This document shows positions 6,938 to 20,249 of a stretch of DNA of 48,080 bases, piece by piece. The position numbers were made by a program, and so were the translations under genes. Each line of letters opens with the position of its first letter. Position 1 is the stretch's first letter. The stretch lies in the NCBI GenBank assembly GCA_007116075.1, contig SKJE01000011.1, forward strand, positions 1 through 48,080, given 5' to 3'. Origin of the DNA: Spirochaetia bacterium. GTDB lineage: Bacteria > Spirochaetota > Spirochaetia > PWKH01. The notes below the pieces were generated by a model. It did no database searches, was not told the DNA's origin, and saw only the letters and a list, made by a program, of their open reading frames with translations.

Positions 6938-7339
6938 ATGGCAAAAATGACCCTACAGGAATTGAGGGCACTGCGTGAGCAGAAAAGAAAAGAAATGAAA
7001 AAGCGGGATCTATCTGATAAAACCATGCAGGTTGTTATCGGGATGGGGACCTGCGGCATTGCCGCCGGTGCGAAGGATACCCTGAATGCATTCATCCAGG
7101 AATTGGAGGAGCAGCAGGTCAGTGATGTCATCGTGACTCAGACCGGATGTATGGGCCTCTGTTATGTTGAGCCTACTATTGAGGTGATTGTTCCCGGTAT
7201 GCCGAATATAATCTACGGCAAGGTGGATCCGGAGGTTGCAAAAAACATTGTACGGGATCATCTGATGAATAAGAAAATGGTCAGCGACCATATATTTGAT
7301 CGGCCCGCTGCCGATATCATCGACCAGGGGAGGAAATAA
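6938..7339 (+). CDS. hndB: Thioredoxin-like [2Fe-2S] ferredoxin subunit (HndB/HydD)
   Basis: GMGTCGIAAGA and TGCMGLCYVEP motifs; AGGAGG RBS before ATG 6938. Confidence 0.85.
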   Translation: MAKMTLQELRALREQKRKEMKKRDLSDKTMQVVIGMGTCGIAAGAKDTLNAFIQELEEQQVSDVIVTQTGCMGLCYVEPTIEVIVPGMPNIIYGKVDPEVAKNIVRDHLMNKKMVSDHIFDRPAADIIDQGRK

Positions 7340-9126
7340 TGGCGTTAACGAATTATATTCTTGTCTGCGGTGGTACCGGATGCGAGTCCGCCAAGGCTGA
7401 CCAGATTTACAAGAACCTCCTGACTGCCGCCCAGGCTTCGGGAGTAGGTGATACTGTGCAGATCCTGAAGACCGGATGTTTCGGTTTCTGTGAACAGGGA
7501 CCTATTGTCAAGATCCTCCCGGAGGACTCCTTCTATGTCCAGGTGAAGCCCGAGGACGCAGAGGAACTCATCAAGGAGCATATTGTCAAAGGGCGGGAAG
7601 TCAAACGGCTGCTCTACGATAAAAGTGAAAGCAAGAAACATGCGAGGGTAGAGGATATTCAGTTCTACCAGAAGCAGTTCCGGATAGTCCTGCGAAACTG
7701 CGGGTTTATCAACCCGGAAGATATCGACGAATATATCGCCAGGGAAGGATATGTTGCCCTGGAGCGGGTGCTCGGCGATATGAGTCCGGATGACGTTATC
7801 CAGGAGCTGAAGAAGTCCGGTCTCAAGGGGCGGGGCGGAGCAGGATTTCCCACCTGGCTTAAATGGAACTTCACGAAGGATGTGGAAGACGATGAAAAGT
7901 ATATCGTCTGTAATGCTGATGAGGGAGATCCCGGTGCATACATGGACCGGTCAACCCTGGAGGGAGATCCCCACTCAGTTCTTGAGGCGATGACCATTGC
8001 GGGATACACCGTTGGCGCCCAGATGGGTTATATCTACATCCGGGCAGAGTATCCTCTGGCAATCAACCGTCTCAAGGCAGCAATGCAGCAGGCCAGGGAC
8101 TATGGACTGCTGGGAGAGGATATCCTGGGAACTGATTTCAGCTTCGATATAGAGATCAGGCTGGGAGCCGGTGCATTTGTCTGCGGTGAAGAAACCGCCC
8201 TGCTGGCTTCCCTCGAGGGAAACCGGGGTATGCCGAGGCCGAGACCTCCCTTCCCGGCCGTCAAGGGACTCTGGAATAAGCCGACGGTCATCAACAACGT
8301 TGAGACCTGGGCGAATATTCCGGTAATTATCCTCAAGGGCGGCGACTGGTTTGCCCAGATTGGTACAGAGGACTCCAAGGGTACCAAGGTATTTGCTCTG
8401 ACCGGTAAGATCAGGAACTCCGGTCTTGTGGAAGTACCCATGGGAACCACCCTCAGGGAAATTATCTATGATATCGGCGGAGGCATTGCCAATGACAAGG
8501 AATTCAAGGCAGTGCAGACTGGCGGTCCTTCGGGAGGAGTGATTACCAAGGAATACTTGGACACCCCAATTGACTACAAGCATTTGCAGGAACTCGGTTC
8601 CATGATGGGTTCCGGCGGTATGATCGTCATGGATGAGGATGACTGTATTGTGGATGTCACCAAGTTCTACCTCGGGTTCACCGTTGACGAGTCCTGCGGT
8701 AAGTGCTCACCATGCCGGGTCGGAGGAAGAACGCTCTACAATATGCTGGACAAGATTACCAAGGGCGAGGGAGAGATTGAGGACATCGATAAGATGCACC
8801 AGATCGGCAAGGCGATGAAAAAGGCCTCCCTGTGCGGCCTTGGACAGACAGCACCGAACCCGATTCTCTCAACCCTGAGGTACTTTGAGAAGGAATACCT
8901 GGCTCATATCAAGGAGAAGAAGTGTCCTTCGGGTAAATGTAAGGAACTGATTTCCTACTACATCCTTGCAGATAAGTGTATCGGCTGTATGGCATGTGCC
9001 CGGAAGTGTCCTGTCGCGGCTATAACCGGGGAGCGGAGGAAAATCCACCGTATTGACCAGGACATCTGTATCAAGTGCGGTATCTGCTACGAGACATGTA
9101 AGTTTGACGCAATCTACGTCGGATGA
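7339..9126 (+). CDS. hndC: NuoF-like FMN/NAD(H)-binding hydrogenase subunit (HndC/HydB)
   Basis: GRGGAGFPT, NADEGDPG, GAGAFVCGEET, GGPSGG, ESCGKCSPCRVG; N-terminal 2Fe-2S and C-terminal 2x[4Fe-4S] motifs. Confidence 0.93.
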   Translation: MALTNYILVCGGTGCESAKADQIYKNLLTAAQASGVGDTVQILKTGCFGFCEQGPIVKILPEDSFYVQVKPEDAEELIKEHIVKGREVKRLLYDKSESKKHARVEDIQFYQKQFRIVLRNCGFINPEDIDEYIAREGYVALERVLGDMSPDDVIQELKKSGLKGRGGAGFPTWLKWNFTKDVEDDEKYIVCNADEGDPGAYMDRSTLEGDPHSVLEAMTIAGYTVGAQMGYIYIRAEYPLAINRLKAAMQQARDYGLLGEDILGTDFSFDIEIRLGAGAFVCGEETALLASLEGNRGMPRPRPPFPAVKGLWNKPTVINNVETWANIPVIILKGGDWFAQIGTEDSKGTKVFALTGKIRNSGLVEVPMGTTLREIIYDIGGGIANDKEFKAVQTGGPSGGVITKEYLDTPIDYKHLQELGSMMGSGGMIVMDEDDCIVDVTKFYLGFTVDESCGKCSPCRVGGRTLYNMLDKITKGEGEIEDIDKMHQIGKAMKKASLCGLGQTAPNPILSTLRYFEKEYLAHIKEKKCPSGKCKELISYYILADKCIGCMACARKCPVAAITGERRKIHRIDQDICIKCGICYETCKFDAIYVG

Positions 9127-9140
9127 TAAGGAGGAATACT

Positions 9141-10892
9141 TTGAAGACCGTGAAAATGAAAGTAAACGGCAAGTCCATCCAGGTACCCGCTAGTTATTCG
9201 GTCCTGCAGGCTGCCAAGGAAGTAAATATAAACATTCCCACCCTCTGCTACCACCCGGACCTGCCCGCCTGGGCAGCCTGCGGTATCTGTGTAGTTAAGC
9301 TGGAGAATTCACCAAAGATGGTACGTGCCTGTGCTACTCCGGTTGCAGCCGGCATGTCAATCATTACCCATGATGCCGAACTCCACCAGATCCGCAAGAC
9401 AGTCATCGAGCTGATTCTTTCCACACACCCAAGTTCATGCCTCACCTGCGGACGAAACGGATCCTGTGAGCTTCAGAACCTGGCAGCCAACTTCGGTGTC
9501 CGGGAACAGCCCTATGAGATTCGCCTCAGGGATTTTGAGCCCGACACGTCAACTACATCTATCGTGATGAACCGGGAAAAGTGCATCAGCTGCGGGCGCT
9601 GCGCCATGGTCTGCCAGTCCCTCCAGGGAGTTTGGGCCCTGGAATTTGTTGGGCGCGGTGAGCATACTGTCATTGCCCCTGCCGGCGAAGTGCCCCTGAA
9701 CGACAGTCCCTGCATTAAGTGCGGCCAGTGTTCAGCCCATTGTCCAGTCGGTGCCATCTTTGAGAAGGATGAGACCAGAGAGTTTATGGAAGCTACCCGG
9801 GACAAGGACAAGCATGTTGTGGTTCAAATTGCTCCTGCGGTGAGAGTAGCCATCGGTGAAGCCTTCGATATGGAACCCGGGACAATCAGCACCGGACGGA
9901 CCTATGCGGCTCTGCGGGCTCTTGGTGCGGACACAGTCTTTGATACCAATTTCTCAGCTGACCTCACCATTATCGAGGAGGGCAGTGAGCTAGTTCACCG
10001 GATAACCACTGGTAAGGGGGAGCTTCCCCAGATTACCAGCTGCTGTCCTGCCTGGACCGACTACATGGAGAAATACTACCCCGATATGATTCCCAATTTC
10101 TCCACTGCAAAGTCGCCCATGATGATGCAGGGAGCCCTGACCAAGACCTACTATGCACAGAATGTCGGTGTTGATCCCAAGAACATCTATTCAGTAGCGA
10201 TCATGCCCTGTACTGCTAAGAAGTTCGAGAAGGAACGGGACGAGAATATGTACGCTTCGGGATATGCCGATGTTGATCTGGTGCTTACCACCCGGGAGCT
10301 TACCCGGCTTATCAGGTCTGCCGGTATTGACTTTGTCAACCTTGGAGAAGAAGAGGCAGACAGCCCCATCGGAGCATACAGCGGTGCAGGAACCATCTTC
10401 GGAAACACCGGTGGTGTGATGGAGGCGGCTGTACGTACTGCTTATAAGCTGGTCACCGATGAGGAACTTGGAGATGTGAACGTCACCGCTGTCCGCGGTA
10501 TGGACGGTGTCAGGAAGGGGTCAGTAGACTTTAAGGGAACGGAGATCAAGGTTGCCGTCGCCCATGGGATGGCTAATGTGAGTACCCTTCTTGAGGAAAT
10601 CAGGGAAGCCCGGAATAATAAGCAGGAGCCTCCCTATCACTTTATTGAAGTAATGGCGTGCCGGGGCGGATGTATTGCCGGTGGTGGGCAGCCCTATGCG
10701 ACTACCGATGAGGTGAGAAACAAGCGTATTGCCGGTATCTACAAGGATGACGAGCAGAGCGATATCCGTTGTTCCCATCAGAACCCGGATATCCAGAAGC
10801 TCTATGATGATTTCCTGGGTAAACCCCTGGGCAAGAAGTCCCATGATCTGCTTCATACAGGCTATCATGAGAGACCATTGTACAAGAAATAG
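9141..10892 (+). CDS. hndD: [FeFe]-hydrogenase catalytic subunit, group A (HndD/HydA)
   Basis: H-cluster motifs TSCCPAW, MPCTAKKFE, EVMACRGGCIAGGGQP; N-terminal Fe-S domains. TTG start at 9141 after AGGAGG. Confidence 0.95.
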   Translation: MKTVKMKVNGKSIQVPASYSVLQAAKEVNINIPTLCYHPDLPAWAACGICVVKLENSPKMVRACATPVAAGMSIITHDAELHQIRKTVIELILSTHPSSCLTCGRNGSCELQNLAANFGVREQPYEIRLRDFEPDTSTTSIVMNREKCISCGRCAMVCQSLQGVWALEFVGRGEHTVIAPAGEVPLNDSPCIKCGQCSAHCPVGAIFEKDETREFMEATRDKDKHVVVQIAPAVRVAIGEAFDMEPGTISTGRTYAALRALGADTVFDTNFSADLTIIEEGSELVHRITTGKGELPQITSCCPAWTDYMEKYYPDMIPNFSTAKSPMMMQGALTKTYYAQNVGVDPKNIYSVAIMPCTAKKFEKERDENMYASGYADVDLVLTTRELTRLIRSAGIDFVNLGEEEADSPIGAYSGAGTIFGNTGGVMEAAVRTAYKLVTDEELGDVNVTAVRGMDGVRKGSVDFKGTEIKVAVAHGMANVSTLLEEIREARNNKQEPPYHFIEVMACRGGCIAGGGQPYATTDEVRNKRIAGIYKDDEQSDIRCSHQNPDIQKLYDDFLGKPLGKKSHDLLHTGYHERPLYKK

Positions 10893-10999: not shown

Positions 11000-12310
11000 A
11001 TGTCTGATTCATCCAGAAGCAGCAATCCAAGAAAAACCTTTGTTATCGATACCAATGTATTCATCCACCGTCCCGATGCGGTGCTCTCCTTCAAGGAATC
11101 CGATGTGGTCATACCACTCTGGGTGCTGGAAGAGCTGGACAAGCTCAAGACTTATTCGGATGAACGGGGCCGCAATGCCCGCCATGCAATCCGGTTTATC
11201 GAGCAGCGGGCACAGGGGGGCAACCTGTCGGCGGGAGTGAAGATAGAGAACAGTTCAATATTACGGGTAGCCCTGGACTATGATCAGAACGCTGCCGAGG
11301 AACTTGATATCTCAAGGATCGACAACCGTATAATCCTAACTGCCCAGAAACTTGACCGGTCAGAAAAGACTGAGGTGTTCTTTGTCTCCAAGGATATCAA
11401 TGCCCGGGTGAAGGCCCGGGCATTGGGAATCAAGGCGGTGGACTACGAGAAGCAGAAAACAAGCTTTACCCGGCTCTACCGCGGATTTCTCGAAGGAGCA
11501 GTCTCCCGGGATGATGCCAGGCTGCTGGAAGAGCAGCAGCGTATACCCTGGTCTGGAAACCTGCTGGACAACCAGTTCCTCACCTCTGCCGAACACGAAA
11601 CCATAGGACGCTACCGGAGTGCAGATAGCTCCCTTAGCTGGGTTGACCGGTATGAACACGGGGTTTTTGGTATAGTTCCCCTGAATGTCCAGCAGCGTAT
11701 AGCCCTGGACCTGCTTCTCGATGATGAGATTTCCCTGGTCAGTCTTATCGGGAAAGCGGGTACCGGTAAGACGCTCCTTGCTCTGGTGGCAGGCCTGAAG
11801 AAGGTGTTTGAAAGCAAGGTGTATACCCGGGTGCTTGCCAGCAGGCCGATTATGCCCTTGGGTAAGGATATCGGGTATCTTCCCGGGGACAAGGAGGCGA
11901 AACTGAGTCATTGGATGAAGCCCCTCTATGACAACCTGGAGTTGATTATTTCCCAGCACCACCATGGAGAACTCAAGAATGTTGAGACGCTTCTTAAGAG
12001 CAGCAAGGTCGAGCTTGAGGCAATCACCTATATCCGGGGTAGGAGCCTTCCCAGGCAGTTTATTATCATCGATGAGGCGCAGAATCTCTCCCCCCATGAA
12101 ATCAAGACCATCGTCAGCAGGGCGGGAAAGGATTCAAAGATTGTGCTCACCGGGGATCCCTATCAAATAGATACTCCCTATCTGGATAGTGACTCAAACG
12201 GGTTGACCTTTCTGGTAGAGGCCTTCAAAGGACAGTCCCTCTACGGGCATGTGACCCTGGAGAAGACTGAACGGAGTCCCTTGGCCGAACTGGCGGCGGA
12301 GCTGTTATGA
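11000..12310 (+). CDS. PIN-PhoH (PhoH2-type) ATPase/ribonuclease
   Basis: VIDTNV and SKDINAR (PIN); GKAGTGKT, IGYLPG, YIRGRS, DEAQN, GDPYQID (PhoH). Confidence 0.92.
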   Translation: MSDSSRSSNPRKTFVIDTNVFIHRPDAVLSFKESDVVIPLWVLEELDKLKTYSDERGRNARHAIRFIEQRAQGGNLSAGVKIENSSILRVALDYDQNAAEELDISRIDNRIILTAQKLDRSEKTEVFFVSKDINARVKARALGIKAVDYEKQKTSFTRLYRGFLEGAVSRDDARLLEEQQRIPWSGNLLDNQFLTSAEHETIGRYRSADSSLSWVDRYEHGVFGIVPLNVQQRIALDLLLDDEISLVSLIGKAGTGKTLLALVAGLKKVFESKVYTRVLASRPIMPLGKDIGYLPGDKEAKLSHWMKPLYDNLELIISQHHHGELKNVETLLKSSKVELEAITYIRGRSLPRQFIIIDEAQNLSPHEIKTIVSRAGKDSKIVLTGDPYQIDTPYLDSDSNGLTFLVEAFKGQSLYGHVTLEKTERSPLAELAAELL

Positions 12311-12993
12311 TATCCCGGGAAGATATCCTGCAATTGACCAAAGCCCGGATCTTTGCAGGGGGATCTACGGAACGAGTATCCCGGTGGCTCGGTGCGCTTC
12401 CGGGGTACAGCGAGCAGTTCCAGAGCGGACAGGTGATCCATTTTCAGGGAGACCGGTATGACCGGCTGATACTGCTTATAGAGGGAAAGGCCGATGCCCG
12501 CTTTCAGGACCCCTCCGGAAAGGTCATGCAGATTGAGACCCTAACCGGTCCTGAGGCTGTGGCTCCTGCTGTGCTGTTCTCCTCAGAGCAGCAGCTGCCG
12601 GTGACCCTCTATGCTGAGACCAAGGTCCGCCTCTTTCGGGTGAATCGTTCAGATCTTCTGGCCTTACTTCATAAGGAGCCCCAGATGCTGGAAAACACCC
12701 TCCTCGATATGGGAGACCGGCTGGTCTTTCTCGCAGAGAAGGTGCGGTTTATCCGGTTTGCCAACCTGCGACAGAAGATCTGTTCCTACCTGCTGCAGCT
12801 GCGCAGCCGCAGCGTAACGCCGAAGGTGAATTTCACCTATACCAGGGAGAAGCTTGCAGAGATGTTTGGGGTGGAGCGTCCCTCCCTGTCCAGGGAGCTC
12901 TCCCGCATGGTGAATGAAGGAATTATAACCATCGAGGGCAGGCAGGTTACCATATGCGATGAAGAATTTTTACGAGATTGTCTCGAACAGTAA
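12307..12993 (+). CDS. Crp/Fnr-family transcriptional regulator (HcpR-like)
   Basis: cNMP-like N-terminal domain and C-terminal HTH TREKLAEMFGVERPSLSREL. ATGA overlap with phoH. Confidence 0.88.
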   Translation: MISREDILQLTKARIFAGGSTERVSRWLGALPGYSEQFQSGQVIHFQGDRYDRLILLIEGKADARFQDPSGKVMQIETLTGPEAVAPAVLFSSEQQLPVTLYAETKVRLFRVNRSDLLALLHKEPQMLENTLLDMGDRLVFLAEKVRFIRFANLRQKICSYLLQLRSRSVTPKVNFTYTREKLAEMFGVERPSLSRELSRMVNEGIITIEGRQVTICDEEFLRDCLEQ

Positions 12994-13005
12994 CACAGGT
13001 TACAG
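12988..13005. promoter_or_regulatory. Crp/Fnr-type palindromic operator (HcpR-like box)
   Basis: CA-GTAAC-ACAG-GTTAC-AG, overlapping the regulator's TAA stop and about 60 nt upstream of the Fe-S gene. Confidence 0.65.
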
Positions 13006-13063
13006 GTTTTATTCCTCTGTCTGATTACTATGGAAAAAAAACGAATTCAGGAGAGGATATACC

Positions 13064-13918
13064 ATGAAACGAGATATTATCACTATAGATGAGCAGCTCT
13101 GTGACGGATGCGGAAACTGTATACCAGGATGCCCCGAGGGGGCCCTCCAGCTTATAGACGGCAAGGCGCGGCTGGTGAGCGACCTGTTCTGTGACGGACT
13201 GGGGGCGTGCATCGGTTCCTGTCCCCAGGGGGCGATTGTTATTGAGTCCCGGGAGGCCGAGCCCTATGATGAGCACCGCGTCATGACCGAGCGCATCATC
13301 CCCCAGGGGGAAGCAACTATTATCGCCCATCTCAAGCACCTGCTTGACCACGGTGCCGATACCTACTACCAGCAGGCGGTTTCCTCCCTGCGGGAATCCT
13401 ATCCCGGGGCAGGGAAGCTCATTGAAGCGGTTGAGGCTCCGCAGAAGCAGGAAGAGTCCGGATGTGCCGGCGGCTGCCCCGGATCCCTCTCAAAGATCTT
13501 TGGTGAAAAACCGGTCCTGGCGACACAGCAGTCCTCAGCCCTGACCCACTGGCCAATCCAGATGCATCTGCTCAACCCTGCTTCTCCCCAGTTTCGGGGA
13601 AAGGATTTCCTGTTCGCTGCGGACTGCACCGCCTTCAGCCTTGGAGCGTTTCACAGCACCCTTCTGGCGGGCAAGGCATTGGGGATTGGCTGTCCCAAAC
13701 TTGATGCCGGTACCGATATCTATCGGGATAAACTAATTAAGCTCATCGATCACAGCGGCATCCACACCTTGACTGTAGCAATCATGGAGGTTCCATGCTG
13801 CGGATCCCTGCTCAAGATAGCCCTGGATGCTGTTTCCAGAGCGCAGCGGCGGGTCCCGGTGAAACTGATCCAGATCAGCGTTGAGGGAGATATTTTGAAG
13901 GAGGAATGGGTAGCCTAA
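13064..13918 (+). CDS. 4Fe-4S dicluster protein with conserved Cys-rich C-terminal domain (family commonly found with hcp/HcpR)
   Basis: CDGCGNCIPGCP, CDGLGACIGSCP, GCPGS, WPIQ, AADC, GCPKLD, MEVPCC. Confidence 0.85.
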   Translation: MKRDIITIDEQLCDGCGNCIPGCPEGALQLIDGKARLVSDLFCDGLGACIGSCPQGAIVIESREAEPYDEHRVMTERIIPQGEATIIAHLKHLLDHGADTYYQQAVSSLRESYPGAGKLIEAVEAPQKQEESGCAGGCPGSLSKIFGEKPVLATQQSSALTHWPIQMHLLNPASPQFRGKDFLFAADCTAFSLGAFHSTLLAGKALGIGCPKLDAGTDIYRDKLIKLIDHSGIHTLTVAIMEVPCCGSLLKIALDAVSRAQRRVPVKLIQISVEGDILKEEWVA

Positions 13919-13940: not shown

Positions 13941-13952
13941 GTTTGCACAACA

Positions 13953-14048
13953 AACTTCCGAGTCCCTGACCGCTTCGGCTTCTGTCATGCGGGGGGACCG
14001 ATGGGCTGTACTGGAAACGGTGCAGCCTCCCGTGTTTGGAAAGGAAGG
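13953..14048 (+). ncRNA. Moco (molybdenum/tungsten cofactor) riboswitch-like RNA motif
   Basis: P1 CTTCC (13955-59)/GGAAG (14043-47) sequesters the RBS. CCGAG junction. P2 GTCCCT/GGGGAC; P3 CCGC/GCGG; P4 GGCTGTACTG-GAAA-CGGTGCAGCC; P5 TCC...GGA, ending CTCCCG...GGAAAGGA. This is the Moco motif layout. ATG at 14055. Confidence 0.85.
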
Positions 14049-14054
14049 CAACCT

Positions 14055-15464
14055 ATGCGTATCATTATTTCTGTGCTGCTCCTGGCGGTACTGCTCCCTG
14101 CGGGGGCATTGGATCTGACCTTCAACGGATCACCGGTGGAGGCAACCTTGCAGAAGGCCGCAGAGCTGGGGTACCTGGACAGGGGTGTTCCGACGGTGTC
14201 CCTGGGTGATCTGCTGCCCCTCACCTATGGTACCAGCTCTGTCCATGTCATTGACGGCCGGGAACAGTCCCGACGGTTTACCACAGAGAACCTGTTTCAG
14301 GTAGAGCTCAGGTTTCCAGATACCGGGGTGATATTAGTCGCTCCCGATGGGGAGTTCCTTGAAACCAGGGAGGTTATGGTCACCTCCAATGAGCTTGACC
14401 TGCGGCCCATTGAGGTGTGGGTAAGCTGGGAGTCAACTGACCTGCTCAAGGCAGAGGCTGAACGGTTTTCCCGGCGCTACCACATGCCGGTTACCATACG
14501 GGATGTTCCGGGTATCAGTCGGAGGATAACTGCATACGAGCGGTCGGGACAGCAGATGCCCGATGTGGTAATGGTCCAGGCAGACTATATCCCTGAACTG
14601 CTGGCCCACCGGATCCTGCAGCCCGTCAGACGGGATGGATCCGATGCTTTTACACTGGAAGGAGATCAGTGGGCTGTTCCCTTTTCTCTCGATACCCATA
14701 TTGCTGTATACAATCCGGATCAGTTGAACCTGCCCGACAGGGACTATACCCTGGAGGAACTGTTCCGGGGTATTACCGATACCGGAATTCCTGCATCATG
14801 GAATGTATACTCTTTCTACTGGCTGCTTCCGATGCTTTATCATGCTGCAGATGCTCCTTTCCCAGATCCCCATACTGTACAGATTGACTCCCCTGAAGCA
14901 GCAGCAGCAATCTGTCAGCTTCTGACGTGGATGTCTGAAGGAGTGCTTCTACCGCGGGAGCGTGACGGCATGATAGACGGGTTTCTCCGGGGGGAGGTCT
15001 CCTACATGCTTACTGGATCATATATGCTCGGACTGCTGGATAAACTCGGTATAGCCTATGAGGCAGCTGTATATCCAATTGATATGACGCCGCTGCTTGA
15101 CTGGAAGGGATTCTCCGTCACCAGGCGGTCACTGAATCCAGCAGGGGCCAGAGCCTTTATTGACTACTTCACCTCCCCGGCGGTTCAGCGGAACCTCCCG
15201 GCAGCCATGGGTAAACTTCCGGCAGATTCCCGGGCACTGAGCTTTGCTGCTGAAAACATACAGCATGGGCAGGTACTGCTCGACAGCAGGCTTCGGGGAG
15301 TACCGGTTCCTGCCGGCAGTTCCTATGCTGTCACGAAGGACGTTATGTGGGGCATGCTGCGGCTTATGCTCCACCGTTCAGTATCTCCTTCGGACGGACT
15401 TGTCCGCGCCCAGGGGATGATCGAACGGAGATTATCCGATGCAGCTCTCAGGGAGGGTCTATGA
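14055..15464 (+). CDS. ABC transporter solute-binding protein, MalE/CUT1-like, with an extra ~115-aa N-terminal domain
   Basis: Signal peptide MRIIISVLLLAVLLPAGA; PDVVMV, WAVPFSLDTHIAVYNPD, FLRGEVSYMLTG, ARAFIDYFTS. Start placed after the AGGAAGG RBS. Confidence 0.8.
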   Translation: MRIIISVLLLAVLLPAGALDLTFNGSPVEATLQKAAELGYLDRGVPTVSLGDLLPLTYGTSSVHVIDGREQSRRFTTENLFQVELRFPDTGVILVAPDGEFLETREVMVTSNELDLRPIEVWVSWESTDLLKAEAERFSRRYHMPVTIRDVPGISRRITAYERSGQQMPDVVMVQADYIPELLAHRILQPVRRDGSDAFTLEGDQWAVPFSLDTHIAVYNPDQLNLPDRDYTLEELFRGITDTGIPASWNVYSFYWLLPMLYHAADAPFPDPHTVQIDSPEAAAAICQLLTWMSEGVLLPRERDGMIDGFLRGEVSYMLTGSYMLGLLDKLGIAYEAAVYPIDMTPLLDWKGFSVTRRSLNPAGARAFIDYFTSPAVQRNLPAAMGKLPADSRALSFAAENIQHGQVLLDSRLRGVPVPAGSSYAVTKDVMWGMLRLMLHRSVSPSDGLVRAQGMIERRLSDAALREGL

Positions 15465-16213
15465 AACTGATCCTCCTGTGTATTCTGATGCTTGTTCCCA
15501 CACATGGTCAGGGGACCAGCTGGCTGGTAGTGGATATCTGCGGAAGCAGATACGCAGGTGTCCCCCTCTCCTCCTATGTCCGTGATATTGATCCTCCCTT
15601 TGAGATTTCCCTGGAAAATCACCAGGGTGCATGGGTAACCCTCTCCTCGGATGCTCGGCTGGATCACGTCATCATTGCCGAGTATAAGGATGGGACTGCA
15701 CTGGAACCGACCCTTGTGGGCTCCGATGTACCCCCTGATCTCCACCTTGAGGGTATCCGCACAGTCGAGGTGCGGCGGCTTGAGCCGGCACAAATAGAAC
15801 CGCCGGTGCTGGAAGTGCTCTCAGGCGGGGATCTCATCCAGGTGGAACTCTCGCACCTGGAGCCATTTATCCTGGAAGGAGACGGGGAGATCCGCTCCTC
15901 TACCGGGAGGGTCACCCAAGGCAGGTATGCCGGGATACCCCTCCTGGACCTTGCCCGGATGTTTCACGGATCATCACATCCGGGGACGATTACAGCAGAG
16001 GCGGCAGACGGATACCGGGTTTCCTATGAAGTGTCCTGGCTGGAGGATCATGAGGGTACATGGATTCTGGCTTGGAGGGATGAAAAGGGGATGATGGATC
16101 AATCCTACGGTCCCTTCCGTACGATAAGCGTCGGAGATCCCCCGCCCCGGACAGAGGGGCGGAGAAGTGCCAGGCAGGTTGTTCGGATCATCTTTGAGGG
16201 AACCCGGAAATGA
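15461..16213 (+). CDS. Secreted molybdopterin-binding (Oxidored_molyb / sulfite-oxidase-fold)-like protein with apparent internal duplication
   Basis: Signal peptide; YAGVPLSSY and YAGIPLLDL; AEAADGY, ILAW, GPFR, RSARQVVRI match the family pattern GVxLxxLL..AxDGY..LA..GPxR..VxxI. ATGA-coupled at both ends. Confidence 0.7.
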   Translation: MKLILLCILMLVPTHGQGTSWLVVDICGSRYAGVPLSSYVRDIDPPFEISLENHQGAWVTLSSDARLDHVIIAEYKDGTALEPTLVGSDVPPDLHLEGIRTVEVRRLEPAQIEPPVLEVLSGGDLIQVELSHLEPFILEGDGEIRSSTGRVTQGRYAGIPLLDLARMFHGSSHPGTITAEAADGYRVSYEVSWLEDHEGTWILAWRDEKGMMDQSYGPFRTISVGDPPPRTEGRRSARQVVRIIFEGTRK

Positions 16214-18123
16214 AGCGCGTGCACCTGGTACTTGGACTGCCGGCATTACTGCTGTGCGGTCTGCTGCTGGTTTTTCCTGCACTTCATGCACTGGGATATT
16301 CCCTTCACGGCTGGAATCTTGACGGATACCGATTTGCCCTTCAGGACAGGGGATTCTCCTTCAGTCTGGTGATTACCCTGCTCTGGACCGGGGCCAATAC
16401 GCTGTCAGTACTTTGGCTCGGGCTTCATGGGGCCGTGTTTGCCCTTGAACACCCTAGATGGAGCCGACCGCTGTTTTTCCTGCTGTTTCTTCCCTGGGTG
16501 ATTCCAGTATATATTGCTGCACCCCTCGCACGGGGCGTATTATACGGAGGGGGAGGGACTTCGCTGGCTGCATGGCTGACGGGTTTTGACATACCCTTCA
16601 CCACTAATGCCTCAGCGGGTTTTACTGCCGCCCTGGTAGTGAGTCTCTGGCTGCGTCTTCCCGCTGTTCTCTTTATCATATACGGAAGCCTGAAGAAGAT
16701 TTCAAGGGATCTGGTAGAGGCGTCCCATGTTGACGGATGCACCCGGTATCATCGAATCCGGGAAATCTATCTGCCGGGAACAGCTTCTGCACTCCGCGCA
16801 GGAGGGTTTCTTACTGCACTTTCAGGGTTCACTGAATTTAGTCTGCTGTTTCTCCTCACCGGTGGAGGTCCCCCGATGGTTTCCGGAATTACTGACCGGT
16901 ATATTATCGGGGCAACAACTACGGTGGGAGTATTCCTCTACCGGGTGTTCCAGGGGATCTATGACTACCGGGTGACAGCATCGGTGGGGACCCTGACCGT
17001 CTTCGGAGTTGTGGTACTGCTGATGTTATGGAATGCTTCAAGCCGGGAGGGGGAACAGCGCAGGCGAATGCTATTGATGATTACTGCAGTGGTACACATG
17101 GTCTCCTTTGGTTCCTGGGTCCAGATTTTTGCAGTCGGCTTCCTGGTGAGCCTGAGATTCCCGAAACTTTTTTTACCCCTGGTGGTCCTGGAAACTGCAG
17201 TATTGGGGTATGTGGTTTATCTGTCGGGTGTCCTTGCAGGTCTAGCCCCGGCAGCCCTCATATCCTTGGCTGCCGGCATACTGCTATCTGACCATCCGCC
17301 CCTACTTGCACGGTGGCATCACGCTGCGGTGGGTTTGATGGCAGTGGTGCTTGCCAGTCTGTCTGCTCTGCTGATGCTGATGCTGCTCCGACTGACCATA
17401 TCCGGAGCAGGTATCATTTCAGTGCAGACACTGCTCCCTGCGTATCCGTCACTAGAGGCCTACCGGCGGGTGCTCACAGACATACAGGTATGGCGGAGTA
17501 TCGGGAATTCCCTCACCATAGCCCTGGGCAGTTCCCTCCTGCTGCTTATGGTGCTGCTTCCGGCGTATACCCTGGCGGCCCTGGTCTCCAGGAAGTCACG
17601 CCAGCGGGCCGTTGCCATTGCCCATACGGTCCAGTCCTCGGGAGGAATTCATACCCTCATTCCGCTGTTTTTCCTGTTCACACCCCTCGCTCTTATTGAT
17701 ACCAGGATGTCTGTCATGCTTGTCTGCGCTGCCGGAGCCGTAGCCCCGGCACTTATGATCAGCAGTTCATATCTGGAGGGTCATCCCGATTCACTTCGGG
17801 AAGCGGCGGAACTCGAGGGGGCCGGACTCATCCAGTGGGCCAGATGGATACTCCTGCCGCTCTCAATACCAGTACTTGCAGTATCGGCGGTGCTCGCTTT
17901 CCTGAGGGGGTACAATACCTTCCTCGTACCGCTGCTGATGCTTCAGCGGGAGGAACTCTATCCGGTAAGCTTGAGAATATACCAGTTTGCAGGTGACCCA
18001 TCAGGTGCCCAGGCTGACTGGTCCGGTTTCGGGGTGCTCGCACTGGTGCATCTTGTGACAGCCTCTGCTGTGATGTGGAAGGTGTCCAGGTATTTCGGGC
18101 ATACTGCCCTGGGTGACCACTAA
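16210..18123 (+). CDS. Fused double ABC permease (MalF-MalG-like, CUT1)
   Basis: Highly hydrophobic; two EAA loops (LVEASHVDGC, LREAAELEGA), LPWVIP, LLTGGGP. Confidence 0.85.
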   Translation: MKRVHLVLGLPALLLCGLLLVFPALHALGYSLHGWNLDGYRFALQDRGFSFSLVITLLWTGANTLSVLWLGLHGAVFALEHPRWSRPLFFLLFLPWVIPVYIAAPLARGVLYGGGGTSLAAWLTGFDIPFTTNASAGFTAALVVSLWLRLPAVLFIIYGSLKKISRDLVEASHVDGCTRYHRIREIYLPGTASALRAGGFLTALSGFTEFSLLFLLTGGGPPMVSGITDRYIIGATTTVGVFLYRVFQGIYDYRVTASVGTLTVFGVVVLLMLWNASSREGEQRRRMLLMITAVVHMVSFGSWVQIFAVGFLVSLRFPKLFLPLVVLETAVLGYVVYLSGVLAGLAPAALISLAAGILLSDHPPLLARWHHAAVGLMAVVLASLSALLMLMLLRLTISGAGIISVQTLLPAYPSLEAYRRVLTDIQVWRSIGNSLTIALGSSLLLLMVLLPAYTLAALVSRKSRQRAVAIAHTVQSSGGIHTLIPLFFLFTPLALIDTRMSVMLVCAAGAVAPALMISSSYLEGHPDSLREAAELEGAGLIQWARWILLPLSIPVLAVSAVLAFLRGYNTFLVPLLMLQREELYPVSLRIYQFAGDPSGAQADWSGFGVLALVHLVTASAVMWKVSRYFGHTALGDH

Positions 18124-20165
18124 CGGATATCGAAGACGAACAGGGCGTGCTGGGAAGCAGATATTGCGTACAGGTAATTCCCGGCAGGATCGATATGAAG
18201 CTGGTGGATCGGTGCACAGGGGGTGAAAGAGAGAAACTCCACACTGCCGTCGGGATTGATGTCGAATGCGGTAATACCCCGGGATGTGACGCTGCCGACA
18301 TAGAGCTTTTCCCTCCATGGATCCGTCACGACGCTCCGGAGTCCGGCCATGCGGCAGGAGTCGAAATCATCCTGTTTTATCCGGTAGCCATAATGGAATT
18401 CCTGTTGATCATAACTGAAACGGCAGAGGAAGTTATTGGATGTAGTGAAAAGGGTGCCGTCGTGGTAGAAATGGGCATTATTTACTTGGCTGATACCCAT
18501 AGTCCCGTCTGTGGAGTAGCTGAAGGACTGGATGGGATCAAGAGCCCCTGCTCTATCGATTGAGAAGAGCTGCAGCGAGCTGTTGTTCCTATTAGTTGAT
18601 GCAAGGTGGGTTCCCGCAGGATTGATTGCCATTTTTCTCGGAGAGGAGAGGCCGGGGCTCAATGCTGATGCTTGGACACCCCCCAGATTGAGCCGGATCC
18701 CGTCCCATATAAGATGGTAGATCACATCATTACCCTGATCACTTACATAGATATGTGAGCTCTTCGGGGATATGACCACATCCGATAGCAGGTCAAAGGG
18801 TTCCATGCCGGCGCCGGGGCTGCCGGAGCGTACGGCACTGTGGAGGTATGTCCCGCTGTCATAGCAGTAGCTGAATATATTGACTGACCGGTCGTACTCT
18901 GAGAGGGTGCAGATAAAGGATCCGTCGGGGGCTGCATCAACGGCCTTTACACCGTGCAATGGAGCCCCCGACGAACCCTCAATGGTATAGAGCAGTTCCA
19001 GCAGGCCGTCATGACGGGGGACAAAGACCTGCAGCAGGTCTCCGGACTTTGATGCAGTAATCACTTCTCCCCGGGATGTCACCGTGAAGTCTGAGACATT
19101 TCGCAGGATAGCCTGATCATGCCCATCCTCAATGACCTGGATCAGCATAAGGTCTTCTGTAAGTTCGTAGTCCAGTGCCTCAAAGGAGAGCGATGCGGAA
19201 GCGATGCTGCCCTGCTGCGGGGTATATGCAATCACGTCCATCCGGTGAATTCCTGCATCCGGGGAGATAATCTCCCTGGCATCCCCGGTAGTCTTCCGGA
19301 TGATCTGCCCGTTGAGGTACCATTCAAGGGTGAGGGATGCAATATCGGTACCGTCGGGATCGTCGAGCAGGTAGGTGAATTCAATAGGGATGTGTTCATA
19401 GATAATATAGGGGTCACCGGCTATAGAGCCGGTAACCCGCTGAGTGGTGTCGATGAACAGCAGATCTGGATTCACTTCTGTCAAGTGGGTGGTGATATCG
19501 GGAATATTGAGATTGAGGGTGGTCCCTGGATAGACAGTTGCCTCAAATACTGCTGTACCGCATGAATCATAGTTTTCATCGAACAGTTCGACCTGGAATA
19601 CATAGTCTCCTGCAGCGATAGTGTCTGTATAGATCCCTCCGGCTGTCCCGATAGTAAGGTTTTTCACATCGGGCTGATCATTACTTCCCGCTTCCCGGAG
19701 GGTAACTTCTCCCTGCATGATCTTGATATCCTGGTCATTCCAGGATACCGATAACTGCAGGGTACCGTCACCCTCGGCCGGTTCAAGCTCAAGCGCAATA
19801 GAATCGGTATGCTTGTCTATGTGGACAGTACGCTCTCCGGAGATCAGAACAGTTCCTGCACTATTGAGTCCCTCGGCGCTGAATGTCCACTCCCCTGCAT
19901 AGATCTCCTTGAGTTCGGTGGAACTCGATGAGCTGGTCAGCGTAAAGGAGCTGCTGCGGGGGCCTGAGCAAGTGAGACTGTATTCCGTAATCTCAGGTTC
20001 CGGTTCGTAGGTGCTCATAACGGATGATGTCCGTGGAGCACCAAGGGGAGACGTAAAATTGAGCACCAGGTGAACCGTGTCGGGCAGTTGGTCCCGGCAG
20101 CCGAAGCTGACTAGCAGAAGTGCCAGCAAGAAAACCGGGAGACTAAGCATCTGGTATTTCTTCAT
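18120..20165 (-). CDS. Lipoprotein with Ig-like N-terminal region and C-terminal lactonase-like beta-propeller
   Basis: MKKYQ start after GGAGG, lipobox-like VSFGC; propeller-type repeats (AAPDGSFI, ISPKSSHIYV, INPAGTHL, IDPAGNYLY). Confidence 0.7.
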   Translation of the reverse strand: MKKYQMLSLPVFLLALLLVSFGCRDQLPDTVHLVLNFTSPLGAPRTSSVMSTYEPEPEITEYSLTCSGPRSSSFTLTSSSSSTELKEIYAGEWTFSAEGLNSAGTVLISGERTVHIDKHTDSIALELEPAEGDGTLQLSVSWNDQDIKIMQGEVTLREAGSNDQPDVKNLTIGTAGGIYTDTIAAGDYVFQVELFDENYDSCGTAVFEATVYPGTTLNLNIPDITTHLTEVNPDLLFIDTTQRVTGSIAGDPYIIYEHIPIEFTYLLDDPDGTDIASLTLEWYLNGQIIRKTTGDAREIISPDAGIHRMDVIAYTPQQGSIASASLSFEALDYELTEDLMLIQVIEDGHDQAILRNVSDFTVTSRGEVITASKSGDLLQVFVPRHDGLLELLYTIEGSSGAPLHGVKAVDAAPDGSFICTLSEYDRSVNIFSYCYDSGTYLHSAVRSGSPGAGMEPFDLLSDVVISPKSSHIYVSDQGNDVIYHLIWDGIRLNLGGVQASALSPGLSSPRKMAINPAGTHLASTNRNNSSLQLFSIDRAGALDPIQSFSYSTDGTMGISQVNNAHFYHDGTLFTTSNNFLCRFSYDQQEFHYGYRIKQDDFDSCRMAGLRSVVTDPWREKLYVGSVTSRGITAFDINPDGSVEFLSFTPCAPIHQLHIDPAGNYLYAISASQHALFVFDIR

Positions 20166-20249
20166 ATATTTCCTCCTTTTGCACAACAAGGAGGTGATCA
20201 GTCTATCAGTTGATTCAATTGTTCAGGATTATATGGCATACTCCTACAT

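Follow-up and report, generated by a model that had tools for sequence, protein, structure and literature searches.

A riboswitch-controlled transporter cassette with sulfite-oxidase-like modules as a candidate salvage system for the tungsten/molybdenum pyranopterin cofactor in a spirochaete

The 48,080-nucleotide contig SKJE01000011.1 of a Spirochaetia bacterium (assembly GCA_007116075.1; this whole stretch is called the window here) carries a cassette in which a riboswitch for the molybdenum or tungsten cofactor (Moco/Wco) precedes the genes for the substrate-binding protein (SBP) of an ATP-binding cassette (ABC) importer, an exported 250-aa protein with sulfite oxidase (SUOX)-like units and a fused permease. 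With moderate confidence, we interpret this cassette as a riboswitch-repressed importer that salvages the finished W/Mo pyranopterin cofactor and whose SUOX-like modules serve as extracytoplasmic capture modules. Judged from the sequences, a cofactor-related, non-catalytic and transport-linked role is the best reading of these modules, because they are Cys-less relatives of SUOX and of the pterin-binding protein PruR, carry non-Tat (twin-arginine translocation) export signals, are encoded in a riboswitch-topped importer cassette and occur in a genome with cofactor-dependent enzymes in which no cofactor biosynthesis genes were found. Binding of the ligand by the modules, its transport and a hand-off between them are what we infer from this combination. 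The cassette and its parts are located in the window as follows.

13944-14063, plus strand: Moco/Wco riboswitch aptamer RF01055, P3-less type (Rfam match)
14055-15464, plus strand: SBP gene, 469 aa; signal peptide without twin arginine, additional N-terminal domain, MalE-like core
14109-14417, plus strand: extra N-terminal domain of the SBP (residues 19-121), predicted truncated SUOX/PruR-like fold without the ligand motif of the family
15461-16213, plus strand: exported 250-aa protein with two SUOX/PruR-like units; the gene is coupled in translation to the one on either side
15533-15760, plus strand: unit 1 (residues ~25-100), a degenerate 'unit A'; RYAGVPL kept, A-x-D-G-Y lost
15860-16192, plus strand: unit 2 (residues 134-244), a well-conserved 'unit B' with RYAGIPL, AADGY, GTWILAW and GPFRT and no Cys
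16210-18123, plus strand: fused two-domain ABC importer permease of the MalF/MalG type, 637 aa, with PF00528 twice

BLASTP detected a weak similarity between the halves of the 250-aa protein (E 7e-4), with RYAGVPL aligned to RYAGIPL. An exhaustive HMMER search yielded 52 proteins including the query, that is 51 others; a word-indexed homologue search with the 250-aa protein returned only the protein itself and no relatives. Unit 2 scored 116.9 bits against the unit profile. When unit 1 was compared with a profile of the unit-2-like regions of the homologues, from which the query had been excluded, it reached 3.0 bits (rank 9/2002 among 2000 shuffles), which is not significant alone. Unit 1 is, however, homologous to the first unit of 6 homologues (phmmer, E 8e-15 to 1e-4), and scores of 20-50 bits against the unit profile were obtained for this first unit in 49 of 49 related proteins from other loci. 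By this connection the 250-aa protein consists of two divergent units, the first of which is degenerate, and the repeat that had been noticed in the sequence-only reading is confirmed. Three types of unit were distinguished in the family: unit A, which is weak and C-terminally short, the strongly conserved unit B, and unit C as a third type. Unit B is characterized by the motifs Y-G-G-v-x-L, A-m-D-G-Y, G-x-W-i-L-A-F and D-P-G-Y-i-R, and residues G158, D183, A204, G217 and R220 (window numbering) are invariant in the family. The window protein comprises a degenerate A and a good B without a C, and its unit 1 carries ENHQGAW where the family has A-x-D-G-Y. Per cassette, three SUOX-like modules are present in the window and four in most relatives.

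The link to SUOX became visible only via the homologues. HMMER searches with PF00174 (Oxidored_molyb), the check proposed in the sequence-only reading, gave no match at E<=1 in the SBP or the 250-aa protein, but the domain was found at E<=0.01 in 43 of the 51 homologues, 40 of which exceed the curated cut-off; the part of the profile that is matched was positions ~55-169 throughout. When the family profile was compared with the PDB, PruR was retrieved with unit B (7kom, E 0.001) and with unit A (7kos, E 0.0017), as was SorA (E 0.0056). Unit B of the family aligns to PruR 7kom and to residues 124-230 of SorA, its G-P-F-R stretch aligning with G-Y-P-L-R of SorA. In the HMMER alignment, A-x-D-G-Y of the family falls on the pterin-contacting A-L-N-D-Y of PruR (the N102/Y104 stretch), with the Tyr kept and the Asn replaced by Asp; the alignment to PruR spans neither W160 nor the P-W motif. 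The 250-aa protein itself gave only chance-level matches to Sm proteins in the PDB (phmmer, E 0.02-0.03), and its single-sequence AlphaFold2 (AF2) model was unusable, with a predicted local distance difference test (pLDDT) score of 38.7.

For the extra N-terminal domain of the SBP, in which a weakly similar pattern had been proposed, the likeness was upheld by the predicted fold and not by sequence comparison. Against the unit profile the domain was not significant (hmmsearch, E 0.96; rank 65 among shuffles), nor was it in hhalign comparisons with the units (probability 10%, then 5% with a deeper alignment; P 0.003 and 0.008), where the register nevertheless was the one proposed in the sequence-only reading. 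An AF2 model was calculated from a 51-sequence alignment that included 50 orthologous N-terminal domains from related loci, and it reached a pLDDT of 92.6 and a predicted TM-score (pTM) of 0.82. Compared with 48,161 chains by VIA-align, this model placed SUOX-fold chains at 10 of the 11 best ranks, with Z-scores of 8.1-4.5 over 91-94 aligned residues: SorT (Z 8.1, 94 residues), PruR 7kp2 (7.6, 93 residues), SoxCD (7.1), SorA (6.6), PruR 7rkb (6.5), nitrate reductase (6.2), a Thermus sulfite dehydrogenase (5.3), chicken sulfite oxidase (5.2 and 5.1) and YedY (4.5). The sole non-SUOX chain among these 11 was a ferredoxin at rank 8. A structure search of the ESM Atlas listed clusters bearing PF00174 at TM-scores of 0.61-0.66, which we take as a lead only. 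An unrelated fold would have spoken against the proposed kinship; for this domain the model predicts a truncated SUOX fold.

SUOX enzymes and PruR form the only fold family known to bind Moco or free periplasmic pterins, and the window modules are relatives of it; because they are related to a Moco-binding domain and to the pterin-binding PruR, we propose them as cofactor capturers. PruR of Agrobacterium, Vibrio and Klebsiella (7kos, 7kou, 7kom, 7kp2, 7rkb), which gives the best or near-best matches in sequence (7kom, 7kos) and structure (7kp2, 7rkb), is likewise exported and non-catalytic and has a truncated SUOX fold without the Mo-ligating Cys; PMC11194511 describes it as a pterin-binding protein that has a secretion signal and a truncated SUOX fold lacking the Cys. 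It differs in being a single domain of ~140-170 aa that is encoded beside the c-di-GMP enzyme DcpA and acts as a signal receptor for non-Moco pterins. By contrast, each cassette has two to four copies of the module, one of them fused to an ABC binding protein, and the modules belong to an importer operon under a Moco/Wco riboswitch. Instead of a DcpA-type neighbour, the SBP and the ABC permease adjoin the SUOX-like gene in the window and in 46-49 related loci. With the catalytic SUOX family (SorT, SorA, SoxC, chicken sulfite oxidase and YedY/MsrP; PF00174) the fold is shared and homology is traced via intermediates, and the W/Y-x-G-v-P-L and G-x-P-x-R stretches are common to both; the window units, however, match only profile positions ~55-169 and have no Mo-ligating Cys, dimerisation or haem domain or Tat signal.

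The three overlapping plus-strand genes for the SBP, the 250-aa protein and the fused permease form one unit. The ATG of the 250-aa gene overlaps the stop codon of the SBP gene (ATGA) and is preceded by an AGGGAGG Shine-Dalgarno sequence, and an ATGA overlap is also found at the junction with the permease gene. In the SBP, PF13416 was detected over residues 169-391 (E 2.6e-11), Pfam recognition starting only from residue ~127 onward, and core residues 119-459 are nearest to the maltose-binding proteins of Thermotoga maritima (PDB 6dts, E 6e-13). The permease contains two stretches of PF00528 (BPD_transp_1, E 2.9e-16), and its best NCBIfam matches are MalG (9.8e-15) and MalF (1.8e-14), both far under the cut-offs. 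Parts of an ABC importer in the window are hence the SBP and these two membrane stretches; no open reading frame (ORF) with a Walker A motif plus LSGGQ was found in the 48-kb window, and the cassette contains no ABC ATPase. Candidates for an unlinked ATPase are encoded elsewhere in the genome, the best being 46% identical to a MalK-like ATPase beside the cassette in 4 relatives, and an unlinked or shared ATPase is typical of CUT1-type importers. A candidate for the energising subunit is an ABC ATPase gene of MalK size that stands immediately upstream of the riboswitch, in divergent orientation, in four high-GC relatives (L051:2866-4014, L056:3179-4354, L059:3626-4768 and L060:3620-4879, all on the minus strand). 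Among known systems, MalEFGK2/CUT1 sugar importers are nearest to the SBP core and to both permease halves, although the similarity is remote. The window cassette differs from them by the extra SUOX-fold domain of the SBP and by a cofactor riboswitch in place of a sugar regulator. A sugar importer, prompted by the MalE-like core, was rejected as the main explanation because of the riboswitch and the association with aldehyde:ferredoxin oxidoreductase (AOR) genes.

The cassette is tied to the W/Mo cofactor by its riboswitch. The match to RF01055 reached 65.3 bits (E 1.4e-13; gathering score 36) and extends from end to end of the model (positions 1-135), only the P3 hairpin being missing: the window RNA is gapped at model positions ~60-75, all 7 of 7 aligned cassette riboswitches lack sequence there, and an alignment of 52 matches has only 9 columns between P2 and P4. 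The minimum free energy fold pairs CUUCC (13955-13959) with GGAAG (14043-14047) as P1. The same GGAAG, the 3' strand of P1, is the Shine-Dalgarno sequence of the SBP gene, 7-12 nt before the ATG at 14055; by this fold, the layout is predicted to be an OFF design that shuts expression when the cofactor is present. A single copy of RF01055 was found in the genome of the window, which is the one upstream of the SBP gene, and the copies in relatives otherwise stand before AOR genes and moa/moe operons. The locus L064 contains a second match to the riboswitch model (56 bits), placed on the strand opposite to the cassette and 2 kb upstream of it (L064:2837-2960, minus strand). AOR-family enzymes typically use tungsten. 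In Regulski et al. (2008; PMC2408646), this riboswitch class is described as sensing the finished cofactor, and P3-less Moco RNAs, the 'Tuco' subclass to which the window aptamer belongs, are reported to correlate almost perfectly with tungsten-cofactor metabolism. On account of the P3-less aptamer and the AORs, tungsten is most likely the form of the cofactor that would be imported.

The cassette, consisting of the riboswitch, a MalE-like SBP with a SUOX-like N-terminal domain, a multi-unit SUOX-like protein and a fused permease of the MalFG type, was encountered again in 49-50 related loci, most of them from Spirochaetota and some from Thermotogae. In the loci of seven relatives the order SBP, SUOX-like protein and fused permease was kept in 7/7 and the flanks differ, and RF01055 was found directly upstream of the SBP gene in all six (6/6) for which upstream sequence was available. 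A scan with the SBP alignment, taking one genome per species, gave 57 loci, nearly all of them from metagenome-assembled genomes (MAGs) of Spirochaetota, together with three from Thermotoga/Thermotogae and two from Thermosipho. Upstream sequence was lacking in 5 of the 57; in 50 of the remaining 52, a covariance model built from 7 known copies of the riboswitch matched upstream of the SBP gene, and as about six loci are probably the same contigs as those used for the model, ~44 matches are independent of its training set. The two loci without a match encode distant Thermosipho SBPs (22-23% identity) and also lack the SUOX-like gene. Rfam confirmed RF01055 in 14 of 14 loci that were re-tested. 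Downstream sequence was available for 51 loci; in 49 of them the SBP gene is immediately followed by the SUOX-like gene, and in 46 of these 49 the fused permease comes next. In a Thermotoga MAG (L073, 2302-5767) riboswitch and SBP are followed by a four-unit SUOX-like protein of 617 aa without a permease, and the genes downstream are convergent and unrelated (DUF4234, DUF72, radical SAM). The flanks of the window cassette, 12307-13918 (a Crp/Fnr-type regulator and a 284-aa 2x[4Fe-4S] protein) and 18120-20189 (a gene resembling beta-propeller Lactonase lipoproteins), are kept only in its own family (also in L013) and lie outside the riboswitch-controlled unit.

A catalytic role of the SUOX-like units is not expected from their sequences. 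The matched region of PF00174 begins after the position of the Mo-ligating Cys. As had been noticed in the sequence-only reading, unit 2 contains no Cys, and neither do 48 of 50 unit-B sequences. The mature window protein holds one Cys, at a non-conserved position. Cofactor-loaded periplasmic proteins require Tat export, and no twin arginine was seen by eye in the N-terminus of the SBP (MRIIISVLLL...) or of the 250-aa protein (MKLILLCILM...), in agreement with the Sec-type appearance noted in the sequence-only reading. A dimerisation or haem domain was likewise not found.

Most relatives, on the other hand, carry a unit C with a conserved Cys-His. Among 44 sequences, 37 contain this Cys, which falls within the motif D-R-Q-T-x-Q-S-G-V-S-C-H ~18 residues before Y-t-G-x-P-L (L024-L079), and 16 of the 44 have a second Cys three residues before it; the seven proteins without the Cys also lack an insert of ~22 residues (D-D-P-x-Y-A-P-H-K-Q-D...). 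PF00174 was matched by only 5 of the 44 unit-C sequences, and the unit-C profile found only spurious nucleoporin matches in the PDB. This Cys-His may stand roughly where SUOX enzymes carry the Mo ligand. 'Cys-less' is therefore true of the window protein and not of the whole family; to this extent the earlier idea of non-catalytic cofactor carriers has to be restricted, although the SUOX/PruR fold, the lack of the Mo-ligating Cys, the importer cassette and the Moco/Wco riboswitch speak for it. In the relative G003, whose main cassette protein has no unit C, a second RF01055 (41.2 bits) precedes a stand-alone PF00174-like protein of 359 aa (L021:3050-4413, contig C4), which holds a unit B-like part and a Cys-bearing unit C, and the contig ends directly after it; this sister genus thus encodes unit C in a separate riboswitch-controlled gene.

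The SUOX-like proteins might instead be cofactor-using periplasmic oxidoreductases or sensors, with the transporter moving their substrate or an unrelated sugar and the riboswitch reflecting cofactor use. The RF01055 copies before AOR genes in relatives and the Cys-His of unit C, which by sequence may sit roughly at the place of the SUOX Mo ligand, would fit such a role, and PruR itself is a sensor partner and not a transport protein. We nonetheless regard this as the least probable of the explanations considered, given a unit 2 without Cys and a single non-conserved Cys in the mature window protein, the missing twin-arginine signal, so that export of the protein would take place in the unfolded, cofactor-free state, and the lack of a detected dimerisation or haem domain. 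In addition, a Shine-Dalgarno sequence in P1 would turn expression off with cofactor, the opposite of what a cofactor-using protein would call for, and tight coupling of the SUOX-like genes to those of an importer was seen in 46 loci.

The need for the cofactor and its supply were compared across genomes. The genome of the window (G000; 93.9% complete, 200 contigs) encodes two intact AORs (AFOR_N plus AFOR_C) and a complete dimethyl sulfoxide (DMSO)-reductase-family protein. No match to MoaC, MoeA_N, the MoaA C-domain, MoaE or MobA was found in it, its sole PF00994 (MoCF_biosynth) match being CinA. The searches for MobA (TIGR02665) and PBP_like_2 were uninformative, with non-specific matches that were below the cut-off or had no meaningful one. 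A gene for a putative vitamin uptake transporter (Vut_1) adjoins the DMSO-reductase-family gene of this genome (L086:3882-4556, contig C55, minus strand). Among 41 relatives the cassette occurs in 10, of which 7 have AOR and lack MoaA, MoaC and MoeA and three have biosynthesis markers; five genomes of this set with AOR and without biosynthesis markers have neither the cassette nor the riboswitch. MoaE and MoeA were not found in G000 and the 6 other carriers of the 41-genome set, or only as decayed fragments. Such fragments were seen in G017, which carries the cassette and four AOR genes: moeA and mogA-like remnants with open frames of 57 and 75 aa and one TGA inside (C50:1204-1570), and a moaE remnant with two stop codons (C1:11521-11823), which look like decayed cofactor-biosynthesis genes.

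A wider set comprised 201 genomes of the class, evenly drawn with a requested completeness of at least 90%, of which 33 have the cassette, 76 have AOR and 75 have MoaC. The cassette was present in 16 of 25 genomes with AOR and without MoaC, in 16 of 51 with both and in only 1 of 125 without AOR. Fisher tests gave p values of 5e-15 for genomes with versus without AOR and of 0.013 for MoaC-negative versus MoaC-positive genomes among those with AOR, both of which are overstated as related genomes are not independent. The carriers with AOR and without MoaC span 10 families. Those with AOR and without both MoaC and the cassette (G010, G011, G015, G041, G143, G152, G173, G190 and G203) have a single AOR match each, and RF01055 was absent from G010, G011 and G015, the ones among them that were included in the riboswitch search; these nine genomes may have another supply route or an atypical AOR homologue.

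The apparent auxotrophy could be an artefact of assembly and the cassette an ordinary accessory of cofactor makers. The genome of the window is a draft, the moa/moe genes of relatives lie on one contig and could vanish together, and half of the cassette carriers have MoaC. This explanation is very improbable in our view, as MoaA, MoaC and MoeA were found in 0 of 5 genomes of the window's family and also not in G019 (96% complete) and G022 (94%). Moreover, G017 keeps the moeA, mogA-like and moaE remnants with stop codons, and the 16 carriers from 10 families in the wider set lack MoaC at a completeness of at least 90%. If G000 cannot make the ligand of its riboswitch, this ligand can therefore come only from outside.

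Importers of tungstate or molybdate are the usual transporters under Moco riboswitches, and the cassette might be such an oxyanion importer with the SUOX-like modules as accessories. According to PMC2408646 and PMC3766115, Moco RNAs are commonly found upstream of molybdate or tungstate transporters, and in the latter only Moco biosynthesis and Mo/W ion transporters are listed under this riboswitch. The permease of the window shows weak matches to Mo_ABC_porter (9e-7) and ModB (0.0047), and no ModA above cut-off was detected in the 5 cassette genomes tested, G000 included. The matches of the permease to MalG and MalF are far stronger than that to ModB, however, and the SBP is MalE-like, with PF13531 only at E 0.14 (12.3 bits versus 25) and no ModA-type NCBIfam match. 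An oxyanion would also be useless to G000 without MoaA, MoaC, MoaE and MoeA, and an oxyanion importer leaves three or four pterin-domain-like modules per cassette unexplained. We consider it improbable. The ModABC, TupABC and WtpABC systems under Moco RNAs share the riboswitch family and a general role in cofactor supply with the window cassette, which differs from them by another SBP family and by its occurrence in genomes without detectable molybdopterin (MPT) synthesis. Import of the finished cofactor is favoured because G000 has no detected synthesis of its own, the only target of its riboswitch is a transporter and an oxyanion is of no use without MPT synthesis and MoeA.

The cassette might also import a metal-free pterin and not the finished metal cofactor, namely MPT, its stable precursor cyclic pyranopterin monophosphate (cPMP) or a non-Moco pterin of the kind bound by PruR. 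According to PMC11194511 and PMC13259868, the pterins bound by PruR-type domains are small ones other than Moco, for which their truncated cleft is reported to be unsuited. The modules match only the C-terminal two thirds of PF00174, and a precursor could be completed by the cell itself in the 16 of 33 cassette genomes that possess AOR together with MoaC. The gene content of the carriers argues in the other direction: because neither MoaE nor MoeA was found in G000 and the 6 other carriers of the 41-genome set, apart from decayed fragments, a precursor could not be converted to the cofactor there. Furthermore, the riboswitch class senses the finished cofactor (PMC2408646), and unit B keeps a SUOX-like G-P-F-R (G-Y-P-L-R in SorA) and is thus less truncated than PruR. 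Import of a metal-free pterin therefore seems unlikely to us, albeit somewhat less so than that of an oxyanion.

Several observations weigh against an importer of the finished cofactor with SUOX-like capture modules. The cofactor is highly labile when free. The conserved A-x-D-G-Y motif is gone from unit 1 of the window protein, the 250-aa protein has no Pfam match at E<=1, and at the position judged equivalent to the W of the 'KW' motif of SUOX the family consensus is M (Q in the window protein). Unit C is absent from the window protein and was not found in three genomes of its genus (G000, G001, G002). The N-terminal domain of the SBP shares only the fold with the SUOX family, the conserved ligand motif being absent; its best Z-score of ~8 is middling by the own note of VIA-align, although the enrichment of the family is clear, and when the model was compared with the PDB by Foldseek, no match reached E<=0.001 and the matches listed included no SUOX chain. 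The SBP core is closest to maltose-binding proteins, and its homologues are publicly named sugar or glycerol-3-phosphate binding proteins. As RF01055 precedes cofactor-using AOR genes in relatives, control by the riboswitch alone does not prove a role in supply. In the 200-contig draft G000, a clustered moa/moe operon could be unassembled. With 16 of 33 cassette genomes having both AOR and MoaC, the cassette is not restricted to auxotrophs, and 9 of the 25 genomes with AOR and without MoaC lack it.

For a cassette that salvages the finished cofactor, the following mechanism is proposed. With ample cofactor, the P3-less RF01055 would close P1 over the Shine-Dalgarno sequence of the first gene and thereby shut down the translationally coupled three-gene operon. 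When the cofactor becomes scarce, the cell would make the MalE-like SBP with its SUOX-fold N-terminal domain, the Sec-exported two-unit Cys-less protein and the MalFG-type permease, the latter probably being energised by an unlinked ATPase. Outside the cytoplasm the SUOX-like modules would catch the labile pterin cofactor and pass it to SBP and permease; they may serve in its capture or shielding, in stripping it from foreign proteins or in docking onto the SBP. The imported cofactor would then feed the AORs of the genome.

Riboswitch-controlled importers of cofactors are known, such as BtuFCD under the B12 riboswitch and thiamine ABC systems under the thiamine pyrophosphate (TPP) riboswitch. 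They follow the same logic, with an OFF riboswitch for the finished cofactor on an SBP-dependent importer, often in organisms that do not make the cofactor. To our knowledge, extra capture modules derived from the fold of the cofactor's own enzymes are not a feature of B12 or thiamine importers. Non-catalytic carrier or binding proteins for Moco exist in eukaryotes, namely MCP of Chlamydomonas and the MoBPs of plants, with folds that are presumably unrelated to the window modules. Caenorhabditis elegans reportedly takes up Moco from its diet; this is the only documented Moco uptake we know of, and we are aware of no transporter there. Common to these eukaryotic cases and the cassette is the idea that Moco is held, protected, passed on or acquired externally. 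Coenzyme-uptake categories of riboswitch regulons are listed in PMC3766115. No description of a bacterial importer of Moco or Wco was found in the literature searched, supplements excepted; ABC genes of this kind may be among the 'other' riboswitch-associated genes of PMC2408646 (Table 1, Fig. S4).

Elsewhere in the window, at 7339-10892, the gene for a NuoF-like flavoprotein (Complex1_51K, NADH_4Fe-4S) precedes that for an [FeFe]-hydrogenase large subunit to which a small-subunit domain is fused, a pair that is consistent with a strict anaerobe. A single ORF of 642 aa at 222-2150 joins a SorC-type Sugar-bind domain (65-315) to a dehydrogenase E1 component (339-634), which is an unusual fusion, and an E1 beta-like gene follows directly.

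In the textbook view, the W/Mo cofactor is too labile for exchange, and every user must make its own. Our estimate is evenly balanced on whether the cassette represents the first bacterial system dedicated to taking up the W/Mo pyranopterin cofactor intact, by which anaerobic spirochaetes and some Thermotogae that have lost the biosynthesis would scavenge what their neighbours release and so sustain their tungsten enzymes, catching and shielding the cofactor with extracellular modules derived from the fold of its own enzymes. If so, this would explain the function of genomes that have AOR and no moa/moe genes (25 of 201, 16 of them with the cassette). It would give a testable function to the widespread proteins annotated as 'molybdopterin-dependent oxidoreductase' without the catalytic Cys, and the public naming of the SBP homologues as sugar or glycerol-3-phosphate binding proteins would be corrected. 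The modules would be natural proteins that may stabilise the cofactor and be useful for handling Moco in vitro. Moco/Wco would then join the cross-fed cofactors as an exchanged 'vitamin' in anoxic communities.

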